Origin: Candidatus Margulisiibacteriota bacterium
GTDB lineage: Bacteria; Margulisbacteria; WOR-1; O2-12-FULL-45-9; XYB2-FULL-48-7
Assembly (NCBI GenBank): GCA_041661965.1
Contig: JBAZTH010000001.1
Coordinates: forward strand, 291,221-355,220
Length of the DNA stretch: 64,000 nucleotides
Direction: 5' to 3'
Shown: positions 1,419 to 25,600 of the stretch, in pieces
Position numbering within the stretch: the stretch's first letter is position 1
Layout: each line of letters starts with the position of its first letter
The notes under the pieces: generated by a model
What the model saw: the letters and a program-made list of their open reading frames with translations, nothing else
Told to the model about the DNA's origin: nothing
Database searches by the model: none
Translations under genes and position numbers: made by a program

Positions 1419-1430
1419 AGGAGGTGGAAC

Positions 1431-5125: not shown

Positions 5126-5127
5126 TT

Positions 5128-9374: not shown

Positions 9375-9723
9375 AAAGATAAAGCCCCACTTTTTCAAGT
9401 CTTTCTTTGTGTAGCTAGAACTAGCTAGCAGGCATCATTTTCCCTTCTCCCAGCTTCTCCATTGTAGCATTTTTCCGCCTATACCCTGTCAAGGGGTCGC
9501 TCGCAGATATACATCAATAAAAATCTAATGTAGCTCGCGCCCCTCTGCTCCAGTCGTCCTCGACTCGCCCTCACATTAAATCAATGAAGCATTATAGTTC
9601 GGGCTTGCTCGTCCTCTTTTCGCGCCCTCCACCGATCCGCTCGTTATCCCTCGCGGATCGGCTCCGGGTGACAGGGGCGAAAAAATGCTATTGGCATGGC
9701 ATCTTTTTTGGGAGGTGTCGCTT

Positions 9724-10251
9724 ATGGTACGTGTCGTTGGCTTCATTGGTTCCCGCTCCTTGCCCGCTTCATTTTCTCCTCTTGTTTCCTCGTCCGTTTC
9801 CCTCTTTTTGTCCCGTGGCTTCCGGGTTGCTTCCGGTGGCGCTTTGGGGGCTGATTCATTCGCCCTCTCTGCCTTGCTCCGGCAGGGGGCCGCTTCTTCC
9901 GGGGTGCTATTCTCCGCTTGGCAGTCCGCTTCTGGGTTCCCTGCTTCGGTTCGTCCCCAGGTCAGCCGGTTCCTTGCTTCCGGCGGCCAGGTCGTTTGGG
10001 GTTCTGCTTCGCCCGGCGCGTCCCGCCAGCAGGCTGTCTCCGCGCTTTTGGGCCGCAACCGGCGGCTGGCCTCTTCCTGTTCGGTTCTGGTGGCTTTCCT
10101 CTTCGGTCCTTCCCGCGGCTCCCTTTTTACGGTGCGTCAGGCGGTTAGCCGTGGCGTTCCGGTGGTGGTTTTCCTTTGCGGGGGCGGGGCTGCTTTGCCC
10201 CCTGATCTAGCCAGGCACTGTTTTATTTTCAACAAAAAGGAGGTGCTTTAG
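9724..10251 (+). CDS. Minimal DprA/Smf-like Rossmann-fold protein, 175 aa
   Basis: VVGFIGSRSLP…RVASGGALGADSFALSAL…GRNRRLASSCSVLVAF…RGSLFTVRQAVSRGVPVVVF aligns with the DprA core (VGSR…SGxAxGID…RNRiisgLs…sGsLiTa). RBS GGGAGGTG 8 nt upstream. Coding strand strongly A-depleted. Confidence 0.5.
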   Translation: MVRVVGFIGSRSLPASFSPLVSSSVSLFLSRGFRVASGGALGADSFALSALLRQGAASSGVLFSAWQSASGFPASVRPQVSRFLASGGQVVWGSASPGASRQQAVSALLGRNRRLASSCSVLVAFLFGPSRGSLFTVRQAVSRGVPVVVFLCGGGAALPPDLARHCFIFNKKEVL

Positions 10252-10430
10252 TGGCTATTTCAGTTTTGTCCCCATGTCTGCAGTGCGGCAGCTTACTGCC
10301 AGGAGTTAGATGCCGTCCTCACAATCGGACCAGATGCGCCCGGTTTCTTAACTATGTTCAGTCTCTTAGCAAAAACCGCGCCCACCACATTCTGATCAAA
10401 GAATTGAAAGAATTAATTATCAAAAATTAA
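10251..10430 (+). CDS. Possible small Cys/His-rich (zinc-ribbon-like) protein, 59 aa, translationally coupled via TAGTG
   Basis: AGGAGG 8 nt upstream of the GTG; CLQCG…C…H…C. Weak support. Confidence 0.3.
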   Translation: MAISVLSPCLQCGSLLPGVRCRPHNRTRCARFLNYVQSLSKNRAHHILIKELKELIIKN

Positions 10431-10439
10431 GATTGATCA

Positions 10440-10473
10440 TTGTTTGGTTATTGCGTCTTGGTTATTGGTTATT
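10440..10473 (+). promoter_or_regulatory. Copy C of the repeated leader element
   Basis: TTGTTTGGTTATTGCGTCTTGGTTATTGGTTATT, followed by AAAAAAGGAGG and the ATG at 10494. Confidence 0.6.
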
Positions 10474-10493
10474 TAAAAAAGGAGGTGTTTCAG

Positions 10494-10667
10494 ATGAGAA
10501 GATGTTCTGTTTGCCGGGCATTGCTGACCCCTTGCAACGAGGGGCTTGATCATATCGGCTTCGAGCCGTACACGCTCAACCGGGTGGTCTTCATTTGCCA
10601 GGGTTGCTTGAACTCGATCCAAAATCAGATCGAATATGGCATATCTTATCAATATGCCGAGGTTTGA
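10494..10667 (+). CDS. Small cysteine-rich protein (CxxC…CxxC), 57 aa
   Basis: RBS AGGAGG then ATG; MRRCSVCRALLTPCNEGLDH…FICQGCLNSI; followed by a terminator. Confidence 0.5.
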   Translation: MRRCSVCRALLTPCNEGLDHIGFEPYTLNRVVFICQGCLNSIQNQIEYGISYQYAEV

Positions 10668-10678
10668 TCCCATCAGGC

Positions 10679-10717
10679 CCGCTTCCTTCCACCAAAGGGA
10701 AGCGGGTCATTTTTTTG
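10679..10717 (+). terminator. Rho-independent terminator
   Basis: Hairpin CCCGCTTCCcTTccaccAAAGGGAAGCGGG followed by TTTTTTT. Confidence 0.7.
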
Positions 10718-10753
10718 GTGATTATCTCTTGGTTATTTAGTGGTCATTGAATT

Positions 10754-10787
10754 TTGTTTGGTAATTGTTTCTTGGTAATTGGTTATT
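10754..10787 (+). promoter_or_regulatory. Copy D of the repeated leader element
   Basis: TTGTTTGGTAATTGTTTCTTGGTAATTGGTTATT, then AAAAAAGGGAG and the ATG at 10809. Confidence 0.6.
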
Positions 10788-10808
10788 TAAAAAAGGGAGT
10801 TGGTAAAA

Positions 10809-11207
10809 ATGGGTGAGTATATTAAAAACATTGCGACCGGGGAAGAGATAAAGATCGGGGTCATGGATAATTGCTTTTTTAGTCGGGCGGAGATCAAGGA
10901 GTGGCTGTTCGATCCCGATTGGGTCGGTTGGTATGCCGGCAAGGAAGAGGCCGGGACGCTTGAGTCGTTTTACGACAATCCCGGTACTTTATACGATGGG
11001 ATTCCGGGGTTGATCCGGAAAGATTTCGCGATCCTTGTCCCTTTGGGCGATTTGGAAGTTTGCGATCATCGCAAAGTTGATGTTTGGAAGAAAGGGAAGC
11101 GCGGGACTGGCTATCAATACACGGTTGAGTGCGAATTTAAGGGGAAGAACGAGCTGTGGGCGGCAGTTGGGCAATTTTTGCTTGCGATTGTTGCGACACT
11201 TTATTGA
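10809..11207 (+). CDS. Hypothetical protein, 132 aa
   Basis: ORF directly downstream of leader copy D with an RBS. No recognisable motif. Confidence 0.45.
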   Translation: MGEYIKNIATGEEIKIGVMDNCFFSRAEIKEWLFDPDWVGWYAGKEEAGTLESFYDNPGTLYDGIPGLIRKDFAILVPLGDLEVCDHRKVDVWKKGKRGTGYQYTVECEFKGKNELWAAVGQFLLAIVATLY

Positions 11208-11307
11208 GTCTTCCCCAGGAGTTGATTAATAAAGCCTTAGAGCAAATGAGTCCGGACCAGCGAGAGTATCTTACGCCGTTGCTAAAAGGGAGATCCTGAT
11301 CCATAAA

Positions 11308-11331
11308 GGGGGCGGAAGCGCCCCCTTTTTT
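11308..11331 (+). terminator. Rho-independent terminator
   Basis: GGGGGCGgaaGCGCCCCC followed by TTTTTT. Confidence 0.7.
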
Positions 11332-11347
11332 GTGGTCGCCGGTATAT

Positions 11348-11376
11348 TTGACAACTCAAGCGATGAGTTGTATCAT
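11348..11376 (+). promoter_or_regulatory. Sigma-70-like promoter (TTGACA-17-TATCAT) with a perfect palindromic operator in the spacer
   Basis: TTGACA at 11348–11353; palindrome ACAACTCAagcgaTGAGTTGT at 11351–11371; -10 TATCAT at 11371–11376, about 40 nt before the HTH gene. Confidence 0.5.
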
Positions 11377-11415
11377 ATGGTAACAAGTAGTAATAAGTAG
11401 TAGGAGGCGGTAGCA

Positions 11416-12237
11416 ATGAGTAGCCTGGTTGTTGGTAAATCGTGGCTGACATTGGAAGAGCTTTCCCAGTATCTTTGTTTCAGCAAAGAGAAGATATATT
11501 TACTGCTAAAAGCCAGACAAATTCCAGCGGTGAAAGTCGGACGGCACTGGCGCTTTAACCGGCAACATATCGATGAATGGTTAATAAGTTTAACCCCATC
11601 CGTAGAACAAAAACCGGAGAACACGGAAAAACAACAATATTCAGCTTCGTTGGGGATTGTCGGGCCTGCTGGGTCGATCAAAGTTGTCTTGCAAAAAGAA
11701 GTTGTTGATCCAAAACTCCAAAACGATTTATGGGCAACCTATCACGATACTTTTGAAAGAAACAAGGAAAAGGCGGCCCAAGATCAGCGTTCTTACGATC
11801 GATCGACTTTTATTGACGCGTTAACCGATCCGGATTATCTTAAATTCGTTCTGGTCAAAGACGATTCGATCAAGGGCTTAAGTTTGGCGACCAATAATTT
11901 AGATAAGGCCCGTATTGTTTACATGAATCCGGAATACTTCAAAACCCGATACCCCAATTTTGCTCAAGCCGGAAAAATCTTTTATGTTACCGCTCTAAGC
12001 GTGATCTCCGGCTTTCATGAATTAAAGGGAATCAATGAGCTTTTGACGACCATGATCCATTTTATCGACCAAAACGAAGCGGTCGTCGCCTTTGATTATT
12101 CGGAAAATAAAAATCATTTTCTCCCTGATCTGATCCAACTGCTGGCCAGGCGGAATAATATCCCGGTGATCGGCAATAAACTGGATGCACAGGTCTATTT
12201 TGAAATATATGGTGAAAAAAACCGTCAGCCGGAGTAA
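11416..12237 (+). CDS. Excisionase-family HTH DNA-binding domain protein with an uncharacterised ~200-aa C-terminal domain
   Basis: N-terminal LTLEELSQYLCFSKEKIYLLLKARQIPAVKVGRHWRFNRQHIDEWL matches the HTH_17/excisionase signature (…TIYRLIKRGELPAYKIGRRWRI…DLDEWL). Confidence 0.55.
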   Translation: MSSLVVGKSWLTLEELSQYLCFSKEKIYLLLKARQIPAVKVGRHWRFNRQHIDEWLISLTPSVEQKPENTEKQQYSASLGIVGPAGSIKVVLQKEVVDPKLQNDLWATYHDTFERNKEKAAQDQRSYDRSTFIDALTDPDYLKFVLVKDDSIKGLSLATNNLDKARIVYMNPEYFKTRYPNFAQAGKIFYVTALSVISGFHELKGINELLTTMIHFIDQNEAVVAFDYSENKNHFLPDLIQLLARRNNIPVIGNKLDAQVYFEIYGEKNRQPE

Positions 12238-12249
12238 AATTAGTCGTAG

Positions 12250-14187
12250 ATGCACCAGAACTATCTCATTTATACACCAATCTTAGCGGCTTCTTTAGTT
12301 TTAAGCCTGTACATTCTATTCCGTGATTCAAAAAACGGCCCTCATCGGGTCTTAAGCGCCCTGATCTTCTCTCTTTTTGTTTGGGTCTTTTGCCTGCTGA
12401 TAACTGACACGACGCAGGACCTATCGACCGCTCTATTTTGGGGGAGAATGGCGATCATTGGTCCCTCTTTTATTCCGGCCTTGTTCCTTTGCTTTACGTT
12501 AGTATTTCCAAAAGTAAATCTGACCGTTTTCCGGTTAATAACGATATTGTTGCCGGCCTTAGCCTTTACTGTTTTATCGCCGACGGCGCTTAATGTCGAA
12601 GCGGTGGCGATCCATGGTTGGGGGACGGAGATATTTCCTGGGGTTCTCTACCGCTATCTGTTGGCATATTTTTTGGTTTATTTTGGTTTGGCTTTTATTC
12701 TCTTATTCCAAAATTATCAAAACGGTCCAATCTCGACCAAAAACCAGATCAGGTATGTATTTTTTGGCGCGCTTATCGCGGTGCTTTTAGGTTTATGCAC
12801 CAATTTGATCTTAATTGAATTTGGCCTTTCGCAATTCAGTGTTTTAGGGCCTTTTTCCACGTTAATCTTTTCCGCTGTTACCGCTTACGCGATTATTAAA
12901 CACCGCCTGATCGATATTTCGGTCGTTATTAGTCGGTGGGTCGCGGAGTTGGCGGCCGCTTCCATTTTTAGCGTGATCTATCTCGCTTTAGCCTGGGGAT
13001 ATAAAGCTTTTTTTGCCAACGCTCTTAATTTGCCGTTTATTATTTTGACTTTAATTTATGGTTTTATGGTCGCCCAATATCATCTACGGGTCAGGCTGTT
13101 TATCCAAACTACCTCCGACAAGCTGATCCTGCGCGGTAAATATGACTACTATCAATCATTGGCGAATGTCGGCCTTGAGATCAATAAAAGCCTTTCCCTG
13201 GAGAATATTAAGGCGACTTTGCGCCGGGTCTTTTTTGAGGTGATGGAGGTTTCCAATCCCAGGCTGTTTCTCCCGGCCGATTTTTCCCGTCCGGAAGTTA
13301 AAGCGCTTATCGCGGAGGAGATCGTTTTCAAAGGAAATGATCTGGTCATTCCCTGCCGGATCGAGAACCGGCTTGTTGCCCTGATCGCGCTGGGGAAAAA
13401 ATTATCGGAGGATGCCTATACTGACGAGGATTTGCGCCTCCTTAACTCTTTGTCCAGCCAGGTGGCGGTGGCGATCGATCATACCAGGACCTACGATGAG
13501 ATCAAGAAAGAGCTGGAAACAGCCCAAGTTCAACTCGACCGCGCCCAGCGGCTGGCCGCGCTGGGAACGATTGCCGCCGGCGTGGCCCACGAGATTCGCA
13601 ACCCTTTGACCGTTATCCAGACGGAAACTGATATATTGGTGAAAGCCCCGAAGGGGGTGGAAGAGTTAAAGACTTTCCAGGAAAAAGTTACTTCTCATAT
13701 CAAAAGAGCGACCGCTATTATCAGGAACATGCTTAACCTGACAAAAAGCGAAAAAAGAGTGGAATTACCGGTCGACCTCAATGCGCTTATTGAGGCGACG
13801 ATCGGCTTCTTTTCTTTGGACCGGATAGTTTTGCGGAAGGAATTGAAGCCGCTTTCCGTGATCAAAGGCAATCCTGATGAGCTTCGGCAGGTCTTGGTCA
13901 ATCTTATTGATAATGCCCTGGCTGTAATGCCGGAAGGGGGCGCTCTGGGGATAAAAACGTATCAAACAGAAGGGCATGTTTTTATTGAGGTTTCCGATAC
14001 CGGACCGGGGATCGCTAAAGAAAATCTTTCCAGGATATTTGACCCATTCTTTTCGACCCGGCATGATGGGGCTGGCTTGGGGTTGTCGATAGTTTACCGA
14101 ATTGTCAGGGAGCATGGGGGCAAGATTGAAGTGAAAAGTCCCTCCGCCGATCCGGAGTTCAAGACAACTTTTATTCTTTCTTTTTAA
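12250..14187 (+). CDS. Sensor histidine kinase with N-terminal multi-TM sensor domain
   Basis: About 230-aa polytopic N-terminus; H-box GVAHEIRNPLTVI; N/G boxes LIDNALAV…DTGPGI…GAGLGLSIV. Confidence 0.8.
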   Translation: MHQNYLIYTPILAASLVLSLYILFRDSKNGPHRVLSALIFSLFVWVFCLLITDTTQDLSTALFWGRMAIIGPSFIPALFLCFTLVFPKVNLTVFRLITILLPALAFTVLSPTALNVEAVAIHGWGTEIFPGVLYRYLLAYFLVYFGLAFILLFQNYQNGPISTKNQIRYVFFGALIAVLLGLCTNLILIEFGLSQFSVLGPFSTLIFSAVTAYAIIKHRLIDISVVISRWVAELAAASIFSVIYLALAWGYKAFFANALNLPFIILTLIYGFMVAQYHLRVRLFIQTTSDKLILRGKYDYYQSLANVGLEINKSLSLENIKATLRRVFFEVMEVSNPRLFLPADFSRPEVKALIAEEIVFKGNDLVIPCRIENRLVALIALGKKLSEDAYTDEDLRLLNSLSSQVAVAIDHTRTYDEIKKELETAQVQLDRAQRLAALGTIAAGVAHEIRNPLTVIQTETDILVKAPKGVEELKTFQEKVTSHIKRATAIIRNMLNLTKSEKRVELPVDLNALIEATIGFFSLDRIVLRKELKPLSVIKGNPDELRQVLVNLIDNALAVMPEGGALGIKTYQTEGHVFIEVSDTGPGIAKENLSRIFDPFFSTRHDGAGLGLSIVYRIVREHGGKIEVKSPSADPEFKTTFILSF

Positions 14188-14647
14188 GTTCTTCTCTTTT
14201 ATCGATATGTCGGCCGAAGGTTTCCAGTACCATCGATGTTTCCGCGTCCGATTTAGAAAAGAACCGTTTGATCGTTCCAATCAGTTCGTCTTCTACGAAA
14301 GGCTTGGTGATATACCCGGCGACATAGCCTCCCGTTGCCTTTTCCCATTTTTCCTCGTCTTCATAAGCAGTGACCATTATGATCCCAATTTGGTCTTCAT
14401 ATTCTTTTCTGATCTTTTGGAGAAATTGCAGGCCGTCCATCTCCGGCATTTTAATGTCTAAAAGTATCAGCCTGACGCGATTGCTGGAAGGGAGCAGCTT
14501 GCGATTGTGCTTATGGAGTATTTCCAAGGCTTCTTTGGCTGAATTGGCGGTCAGTGCGTCAAATTCATCCGTTTCTTTAATTAATCGGGCGGTTCCTTCC
14601 GCGATTTCCACCTCATCGTCGACGACTAAAACTAATGGCTTTTTCAT
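14171..14647 (-). CDS. Single-domain response regulator (CheY-like receiver), 158 aa
   Basis: MKKPLVLVVDDEVEIAE…LILLDIKMPEMDGLQFL…IIMVTAY…GYITKPF. RBS GGAGGTG upstream of the ATG at 14647. 3' end overlaps the kinase gene by 17 nt (convergent). Confidence 0.75.
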   Translation of the reverse strand: MKKPLVLVVDDEVEIAEGTARLIKETDEFDALTANSAKEALEILHKHNRKLLPSSNRVRLILLDIKMPEMDGLQFLQKIRKEYEDQIGIIMVTAYEDEEKWEKATGGYVAGYITKPFVEDELIGTIKRFFSKSDAETSMVLETFGRHIDKREELKKKE

Positions 14648-14738
14648 GGTGACACCTCCAAAATGATTTTGATTGTCCCATGGTTGTGGGAAAGAAGTCA
14701 ACTTGTAATTAAGAAAGAGGATATAATTAAAAACAAAT

Positions 14739-15659
14739 ATGCGCATCTATCTTAAAGATTCCCATTGGTTGGAATACTTGAGATATCGACGACTTTCCCG
14801 GTTGTCTCGATCGACTCACGAGAAAATCCGGATCGAGATTGGTTTGTATTTCAGTTATTTAAAGAAAGTCGGCATAAAGTCAATAAATGAAGCAAACGAG
14901 GAAATGGTCAGTGATTATTTGCTCGATTGTAAAAACAGTAAATATTGGCTGACTGGACGGAAAAGAAGCGTTTTTACCATTGCTTATAAGCGGATGCTTC
15001 TTTGGAATTATTACGAATTCCTGCAAAAAAATGGCTACTACCCGGTTAATCCCTTTAGGAATATCCCCCCTTTATTGTTACCGAAGAAAATCCCTCCTTA
15101 TTTATCAACGCGGCAGATAATCAAGCTCTTTAAGGTGGCGGTTAGAAACAAAAAGCGGCCGACCCAATTTCAAATAAGATTGCGGGCTTATATGGCTTTA
15201 TTGTTTTTCTACGGACTGACAAACCACGAAGTGTTCAGGATAAGAATTAAAGACCTAGATTTCCTTAATGGGGTTATTCTTATTCGCCGGACAAGAACTC
15301 ATGATAGACGTGCTTTGCCCTTATTCTCCCCGATTACAAGCTGGTTGCAGGATTATATTGAAATCCGACCCAAAAGAAGATCTCCCAACTTATTTCAATG
15401 TGTAAAAAGAAAAAGTCATTACAGCTATTTTAGTTCAAGGGGCGATTTACTGCATATATCAAGGAAACTTCATTTTCCGGTGAGTGCCTCAATTATTCGA
15501 AACACCTTTTTTGTAATTATGAGCAATAACCGGGTCGAGCACCGGGTTATTCAGGCGATCGTCGGTTCCCACACGATAAGAACAATAAAAAAACGAGCAA
15601 GCAAGAGTCTCGCCGGCAAAAGAGAAACGGTTGAGAAATATTTGCAGGGCATTACATGA
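14739..15659 (+). CDS. Tyrosine recombinase (phage-integrase family), first of a trio. C-terminal motifs atypical.
   Basis: Integrase-like core (…LFFYGLTNHEVFRIRIKDLD…, LHISRKLHFPVSASIIRNTF) but no canonical LGH…T..Y box. Stop overlaps the next start (ATGA). Confidence 0.55.
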   Translation: MRIYLKDSHWLEYLRYRRLSRLSRSTHEKIRIEIGLYFSYLKKVGIKSINEANEEMVSDYLLDCKNSKYWLTGRKRSVFTIAYKRMLLWNYYEFLQKNGYYPVNPFRNIPPLLLPKKIPPYLSTRQIIKLFKVAVRNKKRPTQFQIRLRAYMALLFFYGLTNHEVFRIRIKDLDFLNGVILIRRTRTHDRRALPLFSPITSWLQDYIEIRPKRRSPNLFQCVKRKSHYSYFSSRGDLLHISRKLHFPVSASIIRNTFFVIMSNNRVEHRVIQAIVGSHTIRTIKKRASKSLAGKRETVEKYLQGIT

Positions 15660-16549
15660 GGTTAAATAAATGCGTAAGGTCCTATATGTCGGGGAACAAG
15701 CATATTAAAAGGCTATCGATAAACACCATGGTTTTTCAAAAACGAGTTCTTGCTAAATATCTTCCCGATGTTCTGACTGTCGAAGACATTACGGTCAAAA
15801 TGATTCAAACGATATTTGATTTGATGAAAAAGGAAAGGGTTTCGCCGGCGACCATTCGATCTCGCTATGCGATAATAATGGCGTTTCTTAATCATTGCTA
15901 TCGCCACAAACACCTGAAATTCAACCCTTCTTTTACTATTAAAAAAATCAGGAAATATCGAGCCCAAAAAATCCCTTTGAATGGGCTGGCATTGCGCAAG
16001 ATGTTGGACGTTAATATTAACTATCGTTATTGCCATGATTTTCAATATTATCGGAATAAAGCAATTATTGGCCTGCTGATTTATACTGGCTTGAGAGTCG
16101 GAGAGGTTGATCGTCTGCGGAAAGACGATGTTCATGACGACTATGTAAATATAATTGCCGGGAAAGGGCGGTTTGATCGGGTCGTGCCTATTCAAGAGCC
16201 GCTGATTTCCTGGCTAGCCAATTACTTAAAAAGCCGTAAACACTTTCATTCAAACCGTCTCTTTATCGGTCTGTTCAAAAAATCGCAATTCAATCGCAAT
16301 ACCGTAAACATAATTGTTAAAAATGTGGCGCGCGCGGCTAAAATTCGAAAGAAAGTATATGCCCATTTGTTGCGGCATTCGTTTGCCAGCCAAATGTTAA
16401 AAGGCCGGGTCGATCTGGAAGACTTACGGCAAATAATGGGGCATCAGAACCTTGAAATGACCGCGATGTACGCAAAACCAGATTTTGAAATGGTGAAGGA
16501 AGCGTTATTATCAAACCCAATGGTAAAGATATTAGGAGGTGAAAAATGA
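15656..16549 (+). CDS. Tyrosine recombinase (XerC/D-like), second of the trio
   Basis: GLRVGEVDRL…AHLLRHSFASQMLKGRVDLEDLRQIMGHQNLEMTAMYAK (R…HxxR…GH…Y). Confidence 0.75.
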   Translation: MRLNKCVRSYMSGNKHIKRLSINTMVFQKRVLAKYLPDVLTVEDITVKMIQTIFDLMKKERVSPATIRSRYAIIMAFLNHCYRHKHLKFNPSFTIKKIRKYRAQKIPLNGLALRKMLDVNINYRYCHDFQYYRNKAIIGLLIYTGLRVGEVDRLRKDDVHDDYVNIIAGKGRFDRVVPIQEPLISWLANYLKSRKHFHSNRLFIGLFKKSQFNRNTVNIIVKNVARAAKIRKKVYAHLLRHSFASQMLKGRVDLEDLRQIMGHQNLEMTAMYAKPDFEMVKEALLSNPMVKILGGEK

Positions 16550-17940
16550 TTGCGATCAAACAGGTGTGGTCGAAAAGGAAAATCATTGAAGGGATAAGGC
16601 TTTTATTTGTTGAACATGGGACGATAACTCCCCGTGAAATACGAAGAGATTATGCTCGTTTATATAATGCCACCCAGAAGCGTATTTATTTTGGCGGCTG
16701 GCTGAAAGCGGTTGAAGCTGCGGGCTACGCGGATAAATACGAAAGGATCCTGGATAAAGCACGCAGGCAAGCTTTAAATCGGCGGAAAAATACTAGGGAC
16801 AAGTGGAGTAAGGAAATAATTCAGGAGAAAATCCGCGAGATTCATGCTACCGGACAGTCATTGTATGGCAAATACATCAAAAAGTCTCATTATAATTTAT
16901 TGCATGCGGCTCACAGTAAGTTGTACTTTGGAAGTTGGAAAGCGGCGGTTGAATCAATAGGAGTTAATTACAGCAAATATGAGCGAGGATATCGCAAAAA
17001 GAAAAAAAGATTTGTCTATGTTATCAATGACCGAAAATACCGCGAGTTTCTTAAGGCTTGGCAGAAACAACTTGTTTTACATAATTATCATCGGGTCACG
17101 ATAATTAAAAAGCTGAGAGACGCGCAGAAATTTATTGGATTCTTTGTGAATAAACGTCAAATAAAGTCGTTGGCCGAACCCGATGTTAGAAAGTATTTAT
17201 GCTCAAAAGAGATCAAGCGATTGTCGGCTAATACTGTGGGGGGTACCATTCTTTCTCTCCGTCAATTTATGGAATTTTGCGTCAAAAACGGAGTGGCCAA
17301 AAACAATCCGTTTGATGAGATCGAACGCCCCCAATATAAACTTAGTGGCTCTGCAGCGTTAAGTGAACAGGAATTGGCGCGTTTTGTCGGTGCAATTGAA
17401 GAATTGCCTTTTAATGAATTGCTGAGAATACGGGGACGATTAATGATTGAGTTGATCGTATATTGTGGTTTAAGACAGCAGGAAGTGACCTCGCTAAAAC
17501 GGCAAGACATTGATCTGGTTGAAATGACTTTGAAAGTGGAGCAGGGGAAGCGAAAAAAGGACCGGCTTATTCCAATAAACGAGGCGTTATCTGGAACAAT
17601 AACAAAATATCTGAAATTGAGAGGCCATAACTATGGTCGCTATTTGATAACCAATCGAATGAACAATCGACAGATTAATTCGATTGTGTTTTATAATCTA
17701 TTTCGTTTGCTTTCAATAAAAGCGGGGTTAAAGATTGTTGTTACCCCTCATCTTTTACGGACCACCTTTGCTACGATCTTATTCGATCGGGGGGCGCCCA
17801 TCAGGGCGATACAAGAGCTTATGGGGCATACATTTGTCAACACAACTGCAAGATATATTCAGGTCTCAATTGGTTACTTGAGAAAGGAGATGAGTAAGCA
17901 CCCTTTATTGGCCGCGAGCCTCGATAATAAGAAGTCATAA
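16546..17940 (+). CDS. Tyrosine recombinase, third of the trio, with a ~170-aa N-terminal extension carrying an internal duplicated motif
   Basis: C-terminal GLRQQEVTSL…PHLLRTTFATILFDRGAPIRAIQELMGHTFVNTTARYIQ. N-terminal repeats LYNATQKRIYFGGWLKAVEAAGY and LLHAAHSKLYFGSWKAAVESIGV. Confidence 0.75.
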   Translation: MIAIKQVWSKRKIIEGIRLLFVEHGTITPREIRRDYARLYNATQKRIYFGGWLKAVEAAGYADKYERILDKARRQALNRRKNTRDKWSKEIIQEKIREIHATGQSLYGKYIKKSHYNLLHAAHSKLYFGSWKAAVESIGVNYSKYERGYRKKKKRFVYVINDRKYREFLKAWQKQLVLHNYHRVTIIKKLRDAQKFIGFFVNKRQIKSLAEPDVRKYLCSKEIKRLSANTVGGTILSLRQFMEFCVKNGVAKNNPFDEIERPQYKLSGSAALSEQELARFVGAIEELPFNELLRIRGRLMIELIVYCGLRQQEVTSLKRQDIDLVEMTLKVEQGKRKKDRLIPINEALSGTITKYLKLRGHNYGRYLITNRMNNRQINSIVFYNLFRLLSIKAGLKIVVTPHLLRTTFATILFDRGAPIRAIQELMGHTFVNTTARYIQVSIGYLRKEMSKHPLLAASLDNKKS

Positions 17941-18052
17941 TGACGAAAAATCGCCACCTTACAAGAAAAATCGATTGCAATTATTGACAGAGATGGGCGA
18001 TAATACAGAGTAGTCGTTAAGTTGCTTTAAGAAATGAAAGGGAGGAAAAAAG

Positions 18053-18691: not shown

Positions 18692-18761
18692 TATTTTGAA
18701 GGCCAGATTGTAATTTGAGATGGCTCAATTGCTTAAAGCAATGAAAGGGAACGATAATTTG

Positions 18762-19664
18762 ATGACAAAAATATTTAGTAAAGGATTGCTTTTGACGGCG
18801 ATATTGATTGGGGGTGTGCTTTTTGGGGGAATGGCGATGGGAGGATGTGGAAGCTCATTAAGTTCAAGTACGAGAAGTGTTTACTGTTTTCCTGATTGGA
18901 CACCTGATGGGAAGATCCTTTGTGTAAAAGCTAAGGTTTCTACTTCTACGGGTGCGGGGTCGAATCCAAGTGTTGATTCCAGCGCGGAATATTTTATAAC
19001 AATTATGGATATCAATGGAAGTAATGAGGCGGATTTGAGGCGAATTAACTCTTATGGAGTTGCTGTTATGTCGCCATTAGGGAATTATATCGCTTATTCT
19101 GAAGGATCGAAAATAAAAGTTATAAAAGCAAATGGGGATGATTTGCATACTATTGGTCTTAATGATGGGTTTGAAGTAATTGGTCTTGATTGGGGTTCCG
19201 ATGAATCAAGTATTATTTATTATGCGGGGAAATCGCCGAATTTTGAACAAGCTGTTGTCGGCATTGATGGAGCAGGTAAGGCAATTATTTCAACAAACGG
19301 CGGATCGATTGCTTGGAGATATGGAGACAGGATTGTTATGCAAAAGCCGATTTCAACGGAAGTCAATAGAGTTGTTGCCATTGATAGGAGAACTTTAAAT
19401 GAAATATCATCTTACCCTAATGTTGTTGGAGGCAATTTCAACGTTAACAGAACAAGCACAAACGAGGTAGTGTTTTTTGGGGAAAAAATAGAAAAGTTTG
19501 ATTTAACCGCGCCAAGTATGCCCCCTGTGGTGATAATAAACAGAAGCGATATTTATGATATTAAACTATCTCCCGATGGTCAGAAAATTGTTGGAGATAA
19601 TGTTAACAAAATCGGTATTTATTTAATAAATATAGATGGCACGGGGTTTGAACAATTGAGATGA
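18762..19664 (+). CDS. Lipoprotein with PD40/TolB-like β-propeller repeats
   Basis: Lipobox AMGGC. Repeats FPDWTPDGKILCV and IKLSPDGQKIVGD. Stop overlaps the start of the giant gene (ATGA). Confidence 0.6.
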   Translation: MTKIFSKGLLLTAILIGGVLFGGMAMGGCGSSLSSSTRSVYCFPDWTPDGKILCVKAKVSTSTGAGSNPSVDSSAEYFITIMDINGSNEADLRRINSYGVAVMSPLGNYIAYSEGSKIKVIKANGDDLHTIGLNDGFEVIGLDWGSDESSIIYYAGKSPNFEQAVVGIDGAGKAIISTNGGSIAWRYGDRIVMQKPISTEVNRVVAIDRRTLNEISSYPNVVGGNFNVNRTSTNEVVFFGEKIEKFDLTAPSMPPVVIINRSDIYDIKLSPDGQKIVGDNVNKIGIYLINIDGTGFEQLR

Positions 19665-22600
19665 AAAAGCTTCTGTTAATGGTTTTTTTCTGTGTATTAA
19701 CTTTAGTGCAAGCTGCAATCTCTGACGATGCGGCTTGGATAAATCTTAATAGTAGAACAGAAGGGACCGCTACATATAAGGATTATCTTTTTATCCTTGT
19801 CCATGGCATTAATGGAAGTAGCCAACATTTTAATGGCCAGGATGATCGAGATAAGGGTTTGCGGCTTTTGCAGCAGTTGCGAGACGACCTTCATTTGGAC
19901 GGGCATATCTTTGCCTATTCATTCAGCGAGAAAAGCGGAAGCAACTTTACCAGAGTGCGCGAGTTTGCGGATAGGACTTATAATAACTCAGCTTCATATG
20001 TTGATGAGAATGGCAAGCCTGTTTCTATGGGTGGAAAATGTTGGTTGGACAAAGCAAGAGAGGATTATAAGAGATGGTATGCACGAACCCACCCCGAATA
20101 TTCAAGAGATGAAAATAAGTGGGAATCTGTTCCCGATTCAATTGTTCCCAAAAAATATATTATCCTCACTCACTCGATGGGAAACATGGCGGCAAGATTA
20201 TATATTTACTCAAAAGATTTATTGGGCGAGGATTTGTATAAGAATGACGTCGCGAAAGTTGTGTACATCGCTCCGCCATTTACGGGCAGTGATTTGGCAT
20301 ATTTAGGGATGGTGCCGCAGGGCATATTTTGGGATCTTCAATTGTGGTCTAAAGCCAATGAATATAATGTTCTGTGGGAAGCGTTGTTGAAAAACCCGAC
20401 TAATTTTGCCCTTGATCCCCGAAAGACCTACAAGATCGCCAAGGAATATGCTTATTGGACGTTGAATGGGCCAGTCATGCTGGATAATGTGACTGCTCAA
20501 ATTGGAATTAAAGGAGCTAGCTTTCAATTAAATATTAATGAGCTAATTCATACGGAAGAGAGACCAGGTGGTGCGTCATTAGTTAAAGGGTCGGGAGCTT
20601 GTTATCAGGATCCAGGATTATACGAATTAATGCCGGAGATGATGATGGGGGTCTTTTTCCCAAAACTCCTTGACGCGAAACTGGCTGACGATGGCAACGA
20701 ACCCCTCTATAGTGTGGTCTACGGACAGGGGTCCCCGCTACCTAATGTAAGAGATTCGGCAATTGGGGGGATCGTTACGCAGGGGATAAAATATTCTTTG
20801 AGTGATGTTAACCGCTCGAACCTGATTGCCGGTGTCAAAAATCTTTCCGGGACGATAACAACTACTCCTGGTGAGTGGGGAAAGGTCTTTGGCGCAGGAA
20901 AAAATGTATTTGATGAGATTTCCGACTCCGCAGAGAATGGGAAATTAAGCTTTTATAATGGGTTTATGGGTGAGCTGTTGACTGTATTTGGCTCGGGGAA
21001 TTTTGCTAAATTACCAACCGAACAGGCGAAATTCTTGGCCTTAATCCAAAGCAATCCGGCTTTTGTCTTTTCCGATGATGGGGATAGCGCGGTGCCGGTT
21101 GATAGCGCAAAGGGGCTATATCAGGGGAAATCAACACGGGCCTTGCGAAACGCCAACTTTTATCCCGTTTTACTTAAAAGTGGATTTGATGATTATTTGA
21201 AAACGCAATTCCCAGGTCAATTTGAAGTGGTTGTCGCGGCCTATTACTTAAGCACGCAATTTGTTCCGGAGCCCGCGAAGACACCGATTGCAATTGGTTG
21301 CCAATATGGGCTGTTATTGTCTTTTATGGAAAGGGTAAATGCTTTTACGCCTGAACTGCAGGCCACAACTTGGTCGCATACTAATACCATGTTAAGACAG
21401 TACGATGTAATCGAAAAAGCAATTTTAGATACAGAAGCTATTTTTACTGTTAATGATTTGCAAACGACTGCTACTAATGACGCTAACACTTTAGAGGCGA
21501 AAACGGTTAAAGTTTTTACCACAAGCGTAGTGGTGCCGAGCGGTTACCACTCTGTTCAAGTTAAAAGCGCGGTAGAAAACCGAAATCCAACCGGACTGAC
21601 TAATCTGCCGATTCCAATGACTCTCGATGGCCAACGAATGTATGTAACGCAGATGACTGTGACTAAGCCGCCAAAGCGAATCGCTGGGAAGCTTAATTAC
21701 CTCATTCCCAGGTTGATGAAACAATTCGAATATTCATTTAATTTTGCCGCCTGGAAGCCGATAACTGGTGTCGACCAAGAAACGGGAGAATTTGAATTAG
21801 ATGATCTGCCCTTTGCCGAAGGGCAAAATATACTTGCTATCCGTTCCGAGAACGGGGTTGGGATTAAATCCCACCAACTCCTTAAGATCATCCTCAATAC
21901 CATTCCGATGCAGCCGAGCCAGTTTAAGCCTCTGCCGGAATATTACGTTGCCACTGCCAATCCCGAGATCTCGGTTGAGTTCAATAAATCGGAATATACC
22001 GGGGATTACGATTCGGAGAAAATTACGATCAAAGGGATGACCTTTGACGGAGAAGAAGTAGCCCCGCAGGTTGAATCGAGCATGGAAGCCTACCACCCCT
22101 GGGCTAAAGCAAGTTATAAAGCCAATGGCTTAAGTGATGGGGAGCATAATGTTGCCGTCAGAGCGGAATCAAATGTCGGGGTTGCCCAGGGGCTCTGGAC
22201 ATTTTATGTCGATACTACCGCTCCGACGATCTCGATCGAACCCTTAGCCCCATATAGCCCGCGCGGACCAACGACGATTCGCTATACCGTTTCCGATGAA
22301 GTTTCTCCCAACCTCCGCTTTGTCCGCTGTGATCTCTACGATAAGAATGATACCCTGGTAACTACCATTGCGACCGCTGACTCTCTCTCTAAAGGCGAAA
22401 ACTATTTTACTCTTGATCCTCGATCCCTTGATGTCTCTCTTCTCGATGGCAGTTACAAAATTAAGATTAAAGCTTTTGATCTGGCCGGTAACGTTGCCGT
22501 TGCCGAAACGCCGTTAATTATTGACGCTACGCCGCCAAAGGTTGGGCCAGTCGCTTTGACCCCAAACCCCATGACCTCAAATACCAACGAATTAAAAATG

Positions 22601-25600
22601 AACGCCGAAGTTAGTGAGAAAGCGTTAGTCGTAATCAAACTTAATAACTTATCGAATAAGACGACCACAGCGTATTTGGCTCAAGCGGGAACCTCTTCCT
22701 CAACACTTACAACTTATAGCTTTCTTGCTTCTTATGCCTGGCCCTATAACAATTCTTTTGCTCCTGGGCCTGAAGATGGGATCTATCGGGTCGAAGTGAT
22801 TGCTCGTGACGAGGCCGGGAACGAAAGTGCGCCCCGTACCCTTGAAGCGGTCCGGATCGATCGTACTCCGCCAACCATTTTGGGGCAGATCGCTAATCCA
22901 TATGTTCTTACCAATATTGGCGCTAATGCTTATAAAACGACACTGACGTACAATTTAAGGGAGAATGGATTGGGAGATAAGGGGGAGGGGGTAGGGGTTA
23001 AAGTTAAGATATTTAATGCTAGTACTGGCCTGCTGGCCGATGCCTATGAAGAGGCTCCGGCATCGTTAACAGAAGAAAATAAGATCGTTTGGCATTCTGT
23101 TTCTGATCTACCGAAAGGAGCCTATAAATTCCAAATCACCGCGACCGATGATGTCGGTAATACCGCGACCGCGTATTCTTCCTGTGTCAAAGACGGGATC
23201 GCCCCTAGCCTCTCTTTCCCGGCGGAAGATGGGGCTGAAATTTCCGGGTTGGTCGCTATCCGCGGCACCGCCATGGACCCCGACTGGTCAAACGATAAAC
23301 CGTTCAAGCAGTACCGGGTTTATTTAGCCAGGGGCGATAAGTCAAAAATGGAAGCCGCGACGATCTTGTCGCAGGCTTCCGAGCTTGTTTTTTCCGCCAT
23401 CGAAGTTCCCTTGATCAATAGAGGCGGCGGCGCCTCAAACATCTCTCTCCGGCCATTGCAGAATGATGCCACTCTGGCTTATCTCAATACCAATGGGCTG
23501 GAAAATGGTGACTATACCATCCTAGTTGTAGTTGATGAAGAAAACGGCGACTCTTTAGCGGTCACACGACTAATAAAGGTTAATAATGGTTCATTTCGCG
23601 CATCAGCCATGACTGCTCCTTATGTTAAGCTCAAGCCGCTGGCTTCTACTGTAGACTTTAAAGCCGACGATTCGGTAAAACTTCAGATCGGCTTCATTAA
23701 TAGCGTCAAGTCGGCCAATGTCTATGTGGAGATTCTCAAATCGCAGGACGAAAAGCTTGTTTATTTTAAATATTTCCCCAATATTCTTGGCGCCCCCTTT
23801 ATCGGAAAACCTGATTATAAGGCGGGGACCGACCTTGGTTATTTTATCTGGAGCGACGAATCTGGCTACCATATTCGCTGGTCGGCCGATGGTTCAAGTC
23901 ATAAGTTCAGCGGTAATTTGATCGCGATGGGAGGAACAGTTAACATAACTGGTGGCAACTCTTCTGTTTCCAGTGGGAGCATGATCAGTTGGAATAAGAC
24001 ACTTTCCGGTGGTGAAGGAGGCTTCGATTTTACCGCTGATGGCGGCCAGCTGATGATCACCCCCAAGCTTGATGAGGACCCAAGTTCCCCTTCGATCTAC
24101 GCTGATAATGTTTACCTTGGGATAACCAAACAAACCCAGCAATACCTGCCGTTGGTGATTGATGTCGCCGGCCAGCGACTGGTTAGCCTTGCTGGAATGG
24201 GGCAGACTTCTTCTTCGATTGCTGGTCAGCCTCCTTCCGGGATTGACTGGGATGGTCGTTTGGATACAGGAGCTTATGTTGATAACGGGAGCTACATTGT
24301 CAAAGTGATTGCCGAAGGGGTGGATGGACAGGGACTGGCCTCTGCCGAAGCGGTGGTTAATGTGACCACGCCGTTTGAATTGAAGATTAAAGAGGCGACC
24401 AATAAAGAGTTTAGTTCTCTTTCAGTTCCTGACCGGGTTTCCATTTTTTACAATGTTTCCAAAGATGCTCTTATAACCGCGCAGGTTCAGAAAGAGAATG
24501 GCGATTTTGTTGCCAGCTTGGCCGCCGGGAAAGAGAGCCTAGGGACTCTCCCAACTAATCCCCTTTCCTTGGTTTGGACCGGGAATTATCCCGATAACGA
24601 CTCGACCCAGGTAGTGACCGGCGGCACTTATAAACTTATTCTGACTGCCGCTGCGAAAGACGGGTCCGGAAACCGCACCGAAACGATTAGTGGAATTAAA
24701 GTTGTCTCTTTTGCCAGAAATGAAGCCTTGGTTAAACTTGAACCGATTGGCGAGGAGGTTGATTATAACGATGGACTTGGCTTGAAAAAGATCCGTTTAG
24801 CAGACGGAGAATCACCGTTATATTTTGAAGCTAAGGGTTATGGCAATTACCATCCAGTAAAAGATCTTACATATACTCTGTCCGCTCAAGGGAAGCAAAA
24901 GCTGACCGCTTATCCGTATGTGTCGTTCGCCGGCCTGATGCATCGAGGGTTTAATGAAGTTGATACGAAAATAAAAGTTATATTCAAGATTCATGCTTGG
25001 AATCATTATTTGGGGGCTGAAGATTATTGGGCATTAGGTAGGTTTTGGAATCCTATGAAGTGGCGAAGGGAAACCAAGGAATGGGTTGAGGAAAAATGGA
25101 TTGCTGTTGATAGCCTTCCTAGTGGGGCTGGAGTAGGGACCGTTTTTAAAGTAGGGGATCAGGTAAAAAATTATACATTCAATTTTGACAGTTATAATTG
25201 GTGGCCCCAAAATGAAAATGATCATTATTACAATAAAGATAAATTTGGTTGCGGGATCGACGCTGTTGATGTCCAGGTTGAAGTCTACACAAAAAATTCA
25301 GGATTTATCTTGGATAAAAATGTTGATTGGCTTCTTGTAAGTCAAGAAAAGCCAACTAGCAAAGGCATATTTAGAACGGCCTATAGCGGAAGCAATGGAG
25401 AATCTCATTATGGAACCTTAGTGTCTGGCGGAAATCGATATGATAAAACATACGGCACTTATCAGGTAAATTTAACCATTAAACTTGAGGCTCCTATTGC
25501 CTATTCCCGCCTGACCAACCGTTTTGTCCCTTGGTTTGGGTTTGTCAGGGCCAATGAAGCGAAACAAAAAGATTTTTCGGAGTATTTAACCGACATCAAT

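Follow-up and report, generated by a model that had tools for sequence, protein, structure and literature searches.

A clade-restricted trio of tyrosine-recombinase genes with a catalytically dead first member lies between defense genes and a giant adhesin in Margulisbacteria

The window analyzed here is a 64,000-nt stretch of a Candidatus Margulisiibacteriota genome (GCA_041661965.1, contig JBAZTH010000001.1, positions 291,221 to 355,220). Between positions 14739 and 17940, it carries three tyrosine-recombinase genes, all on the + strand: ORF1 (14739-15659, 306 aa), ORF2 (15656-16549, 297 aa), and ORF3 (16546-17940, 464 aa). Both gene junctions are ATGA overlaps, and all three products match Pfam PF00589 (Phage_integrase; E = 5e-13, 1e-32, and 4e-34, respectively), in agreement with the sequence-only reading, which had described three tandem overlapping phage-integrase-family genes of these lengths. 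Gene annotation also places the trio, as that reading did, between a two-component pair and a giant adhesin operon, with histidine kinase and response regulator genes on the 5′ side and the 212-aa, 314-aa, and 4567-aa adhesin genes on the 3′ side; the 212-aa protein (p212), encoded directly after ORF3, is secreted. The intergenic flanks are short. The 5′ region (14648-14738, 91 bp), common to ORF1 and the divergent response-regulator gene, contains TATAAT some 11 nt ahead of the ATG of ORF1, and we found in it neither an obvious ribosome-binding site before ORF1 nor a repeat pairing with the right flank. The 3′ region (17941-18052, 112 bp) contains a promoter-like site at 17975-18004, between ORF3 and p212, and no terminator was found between ORF3 and the downstream genes.

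ORF2 is a simple Xer-like tyrosine recombinase. Its catalytic set is complete (R147, H237-x-x-R240, H263, and Y272), as is that of ORF3 (R310, K338, H402-x-x-R405, H428, and Y437), confirming residue by residue the R...HxxR...GH...Y motifs claimed earlier for both proteins. XerC, XerD, and XerA are the best NCBIfam matches of ORF2 and the ORF3 core, while XerA and XerH are their top fold matches. ORF3 is the large subunit, in which two HNH_repeat modules precede the CB domain and the catalytic domain. The internal duplication proposed for its N-terminal extension is genuine (33% identity over 78 aa, E = 9e-11), and the extension matches Pfam PF18780, HNH_repeat. Module 1 (16567-16743, + strand, aa 8-66), a four-helix unit, was modeled at a pLDDT of 80-92; module 2 spans 16804-16983 (+ strand, aa 87-146). 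One module alone is present in the 393-394-aa orthologs of lineages L004, L010, and L011. Across lineages, ORF3 is one or two HNH_repeat helical modules before an ordinary Xer-type core, and none of the sources we consulted describes this fusion between homing-endonuclease-associated repeats and a core of that type. Beyond Y437, the ORF3 model places two short helices (442-450 and 453-456) with low pLDDT.

ORF1 has a tyrosine-recombinase fold, made up of a single CB region plus a domain of the catalytic type, and is catalytically dead. Arg-I is replaced by T161, His-II by S251, and the Tyr nucleophile by R286, so the atypical C-terminus with an unclear Tyr position that had been noticed earlier is real, but the defect is wider. 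No lineage examined departs from this dead state, the substitutions themselves are conserved too, and ORF1 is the best conserved gene of the trio. Since the most conserved member is the inactive one, these findings suggest that the dead subunit plays a central part in the system rather than being left over. By analogy, ORF1 appears to be a recombinase fold retained as a DNA-binding protein without catalysis. Its structure model shows one four-helix N-terminal region, at a confidence (pLDDT 52) too low for a fold search.

The ORF family is rare, with 4 clusters among 5.8 billion proteins and, in a second database search, about 7 representatives among 1.84 billion proteins; further trio lineages were picked up through an ORF2 search. 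The module is limited to one clade of Margulisbacteria/WOR-1, where it occupies the same chromosomal neighborhood in about 10 lineages. It always lies between genes for secreted or giant surface proteins and a variable defense-gene region, which is anchored by YdjM-Poly_export where the contig extends that far. The trio is single-copy, with one place on a 1.67-Mb WOR-1 contig, and its place right at the edge of the two variable regions persists even among lineages with trio identities of only 34-50%. Frames are intact and gene junctions conserved in about 10 lineages, trees of ORF1, ORF2, and ORF3 show congruent divergence, and all three genes, the dead one included, are under purifying selection (dN/dS 0.17 for ORF1 versus L013, 0.21 for ORF2, and 0.24 for ORF3). 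Together, these findings support the trio as a single translationally coupled, co-evolving functional unit rather than three unrelated prophage remnants.

Compared with a WOR-1 genome, backbone proteins of the window are 64-97% identical in amino acids and the trio 66, 54, and 49%. Among the window, L002, and L103, the corresponding values are 62-66% for YdjM, 51-71% for Poly_export, and 50-54, 47-49, and 38-45% for the trio. Since the divergence of the trio is similar to, or somewhat above, that of backbone genes and roughly tracks it, there is no evidence of recent mobility, and the module appears to be old and vertically inherited. A recent insertion at a plausible site does not agree with the shared neighborhood in about 10 lineages, and the search for empty-site alleles recovered none. 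A metagenome scan for the conserved terminator and GGTCGC junction returned six contigs, all occupied by the trio; in L017, which lacks the trio, the junction is present and its spacer aligns to neither side of the window's 24 kb. A viral origin was dropped, as no ORF1 relatives were found on IMG/VR contigs and the ORF3 relatives there were generic integrases only. A PADLOC defense-system search gave no matches on the trio.

On the 3′ side, the change of gene content coincides with the ORF3 stop or lies no more than about 40 nt from it, even where two trios are 93-98% identical, and the homology break points fall in a boundary zone at 17915-18052. Homology between the window and L013, whose trio is 93% identical, ends at 17915, 25 nt before the ORF3 stop, and L010 and L011, whose trios are 98% identical, begin to diverge 39 nt after it. 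The variable region ends inside the adhesin gene (about 32699), not at a discrete island end, and over its last 232 aa the adhesin matches the WOR-1 ortholog at 88% identity. An apparent variation at the adhesin start among L004-L009 was discarded as a gene-calling difference in identical DNA. In the trio flanks of the window, we found no att-type direct repeats, inverted repeats, or repeats common with distant sites, and the flanks of eight divergent lineages had no k-mers in common. Homologous exchange could also account for the break at the ORF3 stop.

Each lineage has defense genes of its own 5′ of the trio (MmeI-like RM, GmrSD, OLD, AbiV, TIR/ThsB, and HsdR). In the window, the variable segment extends from the Poly_export stop to 9439, 5.3 kb from the trio. 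A module of a DprA-like (ShosA/PsyrA-like) gene and u132 (9439-11339, + strand), which is a frequent, non-obligatory upstream neighbor, ends in a terminator followed by TTTTTGTGGTCGC (11327-11339); its ultra-conserved leader (9439-9684) matched no known RNA family. A block of HTH_17, histidine kinase, and response regulator genes (11340-14738), in which HTH_17 is an excisionase-type N-terminus, adjoins the trio on its 5′ side and fills precisely the space from the GGTCGC motif to the start of ORF1. This block is polymorphic for presence and absence and is outside the conserved module. Between species, the DprA-u132 module is 91-100% and the histidine kinase block 90-95% identical in nucleotides, compared to 72-85% for the backbone. 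These upstream modules are far more alike between species than the backbone, which indicates transfer, and the exchange of the DprA-u132 module between species was recent. In the comparison of the window with L011, identity falls from about 90% to 50-65% inside ORF1 (15059-15120, + strand; about 15070), at the boundary of the CB and catalytic domains; the shared high-identity tract extends 330 nt into the gene, which points to homologous rather than site-specific exchange. A 4.9-kb defense module of L100, which encodes no recombinase itself, is flanked by two copies of a 36-nt boundary sequence. Two candidate sites were rejected. A duplicated Poly_export 3′ end, considered as an att site, occurs in L099 and is absent from the window, while the motif TTTTT(N0-2)GGTCGC, considered as the recombination site of the trio, is specific and conserved yet travels with the DprA module even in the trio-less L017.

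The sequence-only reading had matched the trio to the ritA-ritB-ritC arrangement, that is, to a classical RIT transposable element with the two-component pair on one side of its insertion and the adhesin operon on the other. RITs do consist of three adjacent tyrosine-recombinase genes with 4-bp overlaps (PMC3414803). However, when we compared the window proteins by BLASTP with RitA, RitB, and RitC from three RITs of pHG1, they scored 16-76 bits against any Rit protein, with no correspondence to the A-B-C order, whereas Rit proteins score 114-368 bits within their own family and 29-72 bits between families. The expected terminal inverted repeats spanning the trio flanks were not found in the window with a tool that detected the 35-nt, 83%-complementary inverted repeat around a real pHG1 RIT. 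In addition, all RIT proteins keep the catalytic Tyr (RH-Y motif; PMC3414803, PMC10214605), which ORF1 lacks; the gene-length pattern is reversed; and the trio is single-copy with the same neighbors in about 10 lineages and no empty site found. Since Rit affinity, flanking repeats, and empty sites are all missing, the RIT reading is refuted on the terms that the sequence-only reading had itself set, and we consider a classical RIT very improbable. Three overlapping integrases are insufficient to call a RIT.

The reading we tentatively prefer, although we rate it somewhat below an even chance, is that of a lineage-specific, chromosomally resident module of three subunits (a dead A, an active B, and an active large C, encoded by ORF1 to ORF3) whose substrate is its own 3′ junction. 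In its favor are the unity of the three genes, the conserved dead state of A, the rarity, clade restriction, and fixed context of the module, its vertical history, the change of gene content at the 3′ boundary, the missing terminator after ORF3, and the domain structure of C. It also has a precedent in GInt and SE, in which two active recombinases accompany a dead recombinase-fold subunit and the last core gene's stop codon marks the start of the cargo (PMC5385486, PMC10214605). The B and C subunits would form a catalytic heterotetramer, each cutting one strand pair like XerC and XerD, while A, itself non-catalytic, would have a DNA-binding, architectural, or regulatory role, comparable to Tfp of SE, GinC of GInt, or the recombinase-fold repressor MrpR. 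The HNH_repeat modules of C may read accessory, arm-like sites. With the junction immediately after ORF3 as its target, the module would integrate, excise, or exchange the block of surface-protein genes that follows, comparable to ginABCD at the 5′ end of its cargo, and it may now be largely immobilized. This 3′-boundary reading is opposed by the failure to find att-type direct repeats, inverted repeats, or an empty site, by the lack of a fourth small gene of the GinD/Srap/TnpC type, by a divergence that tracks the backbone, and by a variable region that ends inside the adhesin and a breakpoint inside ORF1. Breakpoints inside ORF1 and the adhesin are what ordinary homologous exchange around a hypervariable surface gene would give, with the trio a mere conserved flank. 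Such exchange, at a defense island and a diversifying surface-protein gene, is central to a rather unlikely but substantial alternative, in which the trio is a conserved host set that does not act on its neighbors (for example, a DNA-inversion switch, another distant site-specific reaction, or a recombinase-fold regulator). Vertical, backbone-like divergence under purifying selection, breakpoints within genes (about 15070 and about 32699), flanks in which no sites were found, and the precedent of MrpR as a recombinase-fold repressor (PMC10516654) all favor a host set. It does not readily explain why the edge position between two variable regions is kept at 34-50% trio identity or why two independent close pairs each lose homology no more than about 40 nt from the ORF3 stop, and an Xer/dif role in dimer resolution is itself unlikely.

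The 5′ side allows a further reading, which we regard as unlikely: the trio could be the integrase module at the right-hand end of a defense island (Poly_export to trio), transcribed outward as classical island integrases are, and either integrating and excising the island or capturing defense modules into it. The lineage-specific defense genes, the excess similarity of the upstream modules over the backbone, the precise fit of the histidine kinase block between the GGTCGC motif and the ORF1 start, and the 36-nt duplication around the recombinase-less 4.9-kb module of L100 all favor such an island. On the other hand, the variable segment stops at 9439, a distance of 5.3 kb from the trio, neither a duplicated Poly_export 3′ end nor an att repeat is present in the window, the GGTCGC motif moves with the DprA module even where the trio is missing (L017), and the high-identity tract of L011 enters ORF1 by 330 nt. 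We think it improbable that the trio is a resident, host-kept platform (a dead organizer plus two catalytic subunits, one small and one large, the latter reading DNA through homing-endonuclease-type repeats) swapping blocks on both sides; such a platform would capture anti-phage modules 5′ and surface-adhesin blocks 3′. Finally, it is hardly credible that the trio is what remains of an old integrated element, now decaying and without function. The lost catalytic residues of ORF1 and the unrecognizable ends would fit decay, but about 10 lineages have intact frames and retain the gene junctions, each of the three genes has a dN/dS of about 0.2, and the dead ORF1 is the most conserved member, its substitutions included.

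To our knowledge, multi-recombinase modules (RIT, GInt, SE, and Tn554) are poorly understood, and the need for three recombinase-fold proteins on four DNA strands is unexplained. The locus adds an independent, phylogenetically remote example, located exactly between two fast-changing regions, one of defense genes and one with a giant adhesin. If the trio acts on its flanks, antigenic and immunity turnover in Margulisbacteria could proceed through it. If the two-sided platform were true, it would be an integron-like gene-exchange device with a new architecture in an uncultured phylum.

Among known systems, RITs (Van Houdt 2009/2012; Ricker 2013) share with the trio three adjacent co-directional genes with short overlaps, each of its own subfamily and evolving as a unit; the RIT overlaps of 4-8 bp have their equivalent in ATGA at both junctions. 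The proteins differ, however, since RitA is an active protein of about 410 aa with two sequential CB domains, whereas ORF1 is dead and has a single CB region, its length of 306 aa alone excluding two. The ORF3 extension is HNH_repeat rather than a second CB domain as in RitA, and RIT lengths of about 410/315/335 aa run opposite to the 306/297/464 aa of the trio. RitC has an extra conserved C-terminal helix, and the part of ORF3 after Y437 is modeled as short helices at low pLDDT. RITs are mobile and have terminal inverted repeats of about 34 bp, while the trio, for which none were found, is single-copy and fixed in position in a narrow host clade, without sign of transposition. Tn554 (tnpA-tnpB-tnpC), compared by description, needs several proteins together, including two tyrosine recombinases, and is site-specific, but its TnpC is not recombinase-fold, its terminal repeats are imperfect, and its hosts are Firmicutes. 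An integron was rejected, with integron-integrase models scoring 26-93 bits against cut-offs of 265-435 and no attC-like repeated elements between the modules. Tyroviruses with three recombinases were likewise set aside as a counterpart, as their recombinase genes are dispersed and do not form a trio.

By sequence and fold, ORF2 and the ORF3 core are of the simple Xer type, as in XerC/XerD, XerA, and XerH, and a two-subunit catalytic heteromer is plausible. The trio differs in its third, dead subunit, the HNH_repeat extension, its fast divergence, and its small clade. ORF2 and ORF3 score 128-158 bits against XerC/XerD models with cut-offs of about 330, and there is no terminus context: over the whole window, GC skew stays positive and genes lie on the + strand, with no switch in either near the locus. 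Because of these sub-cut-off scores, the fast evolution, the small clade, and the lack of a skew or orientation switch, a role in Xer/dif dimer resolution appears unlikely. MrpR/YopR of phage SPbeta (PMC10516654) is, as ORF1 appears to be, a recombinase-fold protein retained as a non-catalytic DNA binder, but it is a stand-alone phage repressor, whereas ORF1 is translationally coupled to two active recombinases.

Parallels in composition come from two systems of other bacteria. SE elements (intA-tfp-intB-srap; PMC10214605) also encode together an ordinary recombinase, a large one, and a Tyr-less recombinase-fold protein. They are strand-biased circularizing integrative elements confined to Gammaproteobacteria, their dead member lies in the middle instead of first, and their Srap has no counterpart in the trio. 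SE elements are probably the "gamma-mobile-trio" GmtX/Y/Z of NCBIfam, to which the trio does not belong (GmtY, 24.5 bits with a cut-off of 340; GmtZ, 17.1 bits with a cut-off of 600). GInt ginABCD (Bardaji et al. 2017; PMC5385486), compared by description rather than by Gin sequences, combines two catalytic recombinases with a recombinase-fold protein without catalytic residues, in an operon at one edge (the 5′ end) of variable DNA that starts at the stop of the last core gene. As with the trio, transcription probably continues into the neighboring DNA, and the system is site-specific and distributed within a clade. In GInt, however, the dead member is third (GinC), a small fourth gene is present (ginD, HLH/TnpC-like; none is coupled to the trio in any lineage), there are 10-11-nt att direct repeats, a definable AT-rich 3′ end, and an excised circle or empty site, whereas no such repeats, end, or empty site were found for the trio, and the hosts are Proteobacteria rather than Margulisbacteria. 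Although the trio departs from both in gene order, in the absent fourth gene, and in sequence, as the Gmt scores indicate for SE, its make-up resembles that of the GInt and SE core modules.

The three genes run in the same direction as ORF1 (subunit A; 14739-15659, 306 aa), ORF2 (subunit B; 15656-16549, 297 aa) and ORF3 (subunit C; 16546-17940, 464 aa), and at both the ORF1/ORF2 and ORF2/ORF3 junctions the start codon overlaps the preceding stop codon as ATGA. Matches to Pfam Phage_integrase are strong for ORF2 (E = 1e-32) and ORF3 (E = 4e-34) and weaker for ORF1 (E = 5e-13), and the ORF calls, junctions and domain matches agree with the sequence-only reading of three consecutive, ATGA-coupled phage-integrase genes. 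The catalytic residues were placed from alignments of the three proteins among themselves and to orthologs; for ORF1 and ORF3, solved Xer structures were aligned as well. The complete motifs previously read in the second and third genes were borne out, with full R/H-R/H/Y sets in ORF2 (Arg-I R147, His-II/Arg-II H237/R240, His-III H263, Tyr Y272; Lys uncertain) and ORF3 (Arg-I R310, Lys K338, His-II/Arg-II H402/R405, His-III H428, Tyr Y437). The first gene had been noted for an unclear catalytic Tyr; we found R286 at that position, and the defect also includes T161 at Arg-I and S251 at His-II (Arg-II is R254), while the Lys position is not K and His-III, H278, is one residue off. The N-terminal extension of the third gene was likewise confirmed, as its first 160 residues form an internal duplication (33% identity over 78 aa, E = 9e-11) that matches Pfam HNH_repeat ('homing endonuclease associated repeat'). 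In the AlphaFold model of ORF3, two confident four-helix modules, corresponding to HNH_repeat, are followed by a normal CB domain and catalytic domain, and the core superposes on XerA, XerH and IntI. In the sources consulted, we found no description of a fusion between HNH_repeat and a Xer-type recombinase domain.

By definition, a RIT element has three overlapping genes, and each of the distinct families RitA, RitB and RitC contributes one (PMC3414803); RitA has two CB domains and RitC an additional C-terminal helix (PMC8138268). The three RIT proteins measure 315-410 aa, all with the catalytic tyrosine, and terminal inverted repeats of 34 bp lie on either side (PMC10214605). The trio had been likened to such a ritA-ritB-ritC element, and it does consist of three overlapping genes that form one unit, but it fails on sequence affinity, inverted repeats, catalysis, size and copy number. 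With genuine RITs of megaplasmid pHG1 as the reference set, RitA, RitB and RitC score 114-368 bits within their own family and 29-72 bits against the other two, whereas the trio proteins and their orthologs score only 16-76 bits against every pHG1 Rit protein, with no correspondence to the A-B-C order; Xer models score ORF2 and ORF3 higher than Rit proteins do (128-158 bits). The expected terminal inverted repeats were also missing: around a pHG1 RIT, the repeat finder detects an inverted pair of 35 nt with 83% complementarity, ~110 bp outside the element, but it returned no inverted repeats spanning the trio. ORF1 is catalytically dead and, at 306 aa, too short for two CB domains, and the trio is single-copy on a complete 1.67-Mb genome. 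We therefore reject the RIT assignment on the lack of Rit affinity and flanking inverted repeats, the dead and short ORF1, and the single copy.

The trio family is very rare. The ORF1 family comprises four clusters among 5.8 billion proteins, and a HMMER profile search of 1.84 billion representatives returned ~7 family members followed by a gap down to generic recombinases; five additional lineages were found via ORF2. All of the resulting ~10 lineages (window/L001, L013/L100, L010, L011, the WOR-1 genome L004, L002, L103/L104, L105, L106 and L107) carry the same three-gene set, with a dead first gene of ~300 aa, a second of ~300 aa and a third of 393-477 aa that encodes one or two HNH_repeat modules. 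Variable defence-type genes (MmeI-like RM, GmrSD, OLD, AbiV, TIR/ThsB, HsdR, SNF2) lie 5' of the trio, and YdjM and Poly_export form the left anchor of this defence region wherever the contig extends far enough; 3' of the trio lie genes for secreted proteins and for a giant protein with many FlgD_ig and Big_13 domains. Among the viral contigs of IMG/VR, none carried a relative of ORF1. The distant ORF1-profile matches (P0143-P0150) include 650-870-aa proteins in which two recombinase modules are fused in tandem.

The sequence-only reading had placed a plausible insertion site between the two-component pair and the adhesin operon, yet the WOR-1 genome retains the whole order of trio, adhesin, p338, Xis-LSR, MiaB, prs and rpoBC. 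Between the window and WOR-1, amino acid identity is 96% for RpoB, 87% for Prs, 79% for Hom and 64-68% for MiaB, SLH, p338 and LSR, compared to 66, 54 and 49% for ORF1, ORF2 and ORF3; among the window, L002 and L103, it is 62-66% for YdjM and 51-71% for Poly_export, compared to 50-54, 47-49 and 38-45% for the trio. In both comparisons, trio identity reaches the bottom of the backbone range or falls slightly short of it. Purifying selection acts on all three genes, with dN/dS between the window and L013 of 0.17 (ORF1), 0.21 (ORF2) and 0.24 (ORF3). The best conserved member is the dead ORF1, whose inactivating substitutions are conserved, also in the distant relatives P0135, P0136 and P0139, and the nearest outgroups (P0141, P0142 and P0145) likewise carry inactivating substitutions. 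Backbone-like divergence and purifying selection argue against a recent insertion, and selection on all three genes together with the conservation of ORF1 and its substitutions argues against a decaying remnant; the pattern marks the trio as an old, functional module passed on vertically. No empty-site allele emerged either, as all metagenome contigs bearing the conserved junction left of the trio were occupied.

As the alignments read, the moving part is the DNA on both sides of the trio. On the 5' side, the window and L011 have the HTH_17-HK-RR block (11340-14738) in common (90-95% nt identity), but L013 and L010 lack it, despite trios 93% identical to that of the window (L013) and 98% identical to that of L011 (L010); a 57-bp promoter segment takes its place directly before the trio. 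The block encodes an HTH_17 protein with an excisionase-type N-terminus, a 7TM-GAF histidine kinase and a response regulator, and in L106 a similar kinase-regulator pair is located downstream of the trio instead. On the 3' side, homology between the window and L013 ends 25 nt short of the ORF3 stop codon (17915), with unrelated sequence downstream, and L010 and L011 share only 39 nt beyond the ORF3 stop; the L013 downstream segment is ~90% identical to that of WOR-1. We found no terminator between ORF3 and the downstream genes, no att-type duplication and no k-mer common to the trio flanks of eight divergent lineages. In L017, a trio-less Saganbacteria locus, the order is GGTCGC, 195 nt, Xis-like gene and MiaB, and the corresponding interval in the window spans 24 kb (HK block, trio, adhesin operon and non-coding tail). 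Since the L017 spacer aligned to neither side of these 24 kb, it defines no precise junction.

Further upstream, the DprA-like + u132 module (9439-11339) is 91-100% identical at the nt level between the window and WOR-1. Since this exceeds the 85% of the rpoB region, the module was probably transferred recently across species. It ends in a terminator and then the invariant TTTTTGTGGTCGC; six lineages conserve the terminator and TTTTT(N0-2)GGTCGC 45-60 nt 5' of the trio, and the motif occurs once in the window (11327-11339). We rejected it as the trio's site and assign it to the DprA module, since it is also present in L017 beside a degenerate DprA gene. The DprA-like protein (module 9685-11339) is similar to ShosA and PsyrA, which are the DprA-like members of the defence modules ShosTA and PsyrTA, and its partner u132 is an uncharacterised 132-135-aa protein. 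The non-coding leader of the DprA-like gene (9439-9684) shows 100% identity across the window, L004, L100 and L099, against only 72-90% for their backbones; its folding is better than that of shuffled sequence (z = -3.8 on the minus and -2.7 on the plus strand), it has no Rfam match, and L017 carries a weaker copy. L100 has the first 36 nt of the leader twice (1565, 6476), on either side of a 4.9-kb defence module without its own recombinase.

Between Poly_export and the DprA module, the window's form of the variable defence island (2441-8242) encodes an MmeI-like type IIG restriction-modification enzyme (PADLOC E = 9e-302), a DEAD/ResIII helicase and a T5orf172/MUG113 protein. In the related contig L099 (oriented), the terminal ~75 nt of Poly_export recur ~830 nt downstream (4206-4357, 5184-5256), with a 260-aa membrane-protein gene in between; this looks like the footprint of a site-specific insertion into the Poly_export 3' end; the window has no such duplication. 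A dispersed, mostly intergenic repeat of ~60-75 nt (window 1307-1427, 1791-1864 and 10432-10487) is shared with L099 10515-10593.

Downstream, a 22-nt direct repeat, TTGCTTWAAGMAATGAAAGGGA (18022-18043 and 18729-18750; ~0.01 matches expected by chance), lies just upstream of the likely starts of two small secreted/lipoprotein genes preceding the adhesin. The 4567-aa adhesin (19661-33364) is hypervariable with a conserved C-terminal module: conservation with the WOR-1 ortholog is confined to its last 232 aa, and the N-terminal domains are swapped (lipase-like in the window, Peptidase_M23 in WOR-1). A 600-nt non-coding segment after the operon (34483-35070) is 83% identical to L099 (oriented) 224-835, where the copy stands in reverse orientation with a recombinase-ATPase fusion gene and YdjM to its right; this is due either to a large inversion that separates close relatives or to long inverted repeats on both sides of the whole region, and the window ends inside YdjM. 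At 35326-37295, a small excisionase-like HTH gene directly precedes the gene for a large serine recombinase of 602 aa, and the 3' end of the recombinase gene runs into the start of the MiaB-like ORF (37084-). Identity of the recombinase is 68% to WOR-1 and 82% to L019, whose MiaB reaches only 53%; L017 and L018 lack the recombinase, although L017 keeps a very similar Xis-like gene; the pair may be a second, separate integrative system.

We tentatively favour a mechanism in which B and C would form the catalytic pair, with A as a non-catalytic organiser or regulator and the HNH_repeat modules of C reading accessory sites. The reaction would occur at the junction just 3' of ORF3, where the surface-protein block would be exchanged or integrated. 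The stronger of two main rivals, less probable than this mechanism, is that the trio only forms the conserved border of two regions varying by homologous exchange, with its real target elsewhere. Part of the mosaic is plainly attributable to such exchange, judging from breakpoints inside ORF1, where the high-identity tract of the window and L011 ends ~330 nt into the gene (~15070), and inside the adhesin, whose variable part ends at ~32699 before a last 232 aa 88% identical to WOR-1. That the trio serves the upstream defence island, whose genes vary across lineages, is less probable still. The trio itself is a recombinase module of three subunits, phylogenetically remote and well conserved, with one core subunit dead; its mobility and recombination site are putative.

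A Xer/dif role is unlikely given low Xer scores, fast gene evolution, restriction of the family to a small clade and no switch of GC skew or gene orientation near the locus. Two catalytic recombinases with one conserved recombinase-fold protein without catalytic residues have been described in SE elements (IntA, Tfp, IntB, Srap; PMC10214605) and in GInt islands (GinA, GinB, GinC, GinD; PMC5385486), and the recombinase-fold repressor MrpR is a further precedent for a non-catalytic role such as A's (PMC10516654). The trio shares this composition with both and, like GInt, shows a switch in content at the stop codon of its last core gene. Unlike SE and GInt, it has its dead member first in order, lacks a fourth small gene and definable ends, and resides in a different host phylum; it belongs to neither the GmtY nor the GmtZ family. 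Since the composition is shared but these differences stand, we regard the trio as a novel form of the multi-subunit tyrosine-recombinase module, outside every named family.
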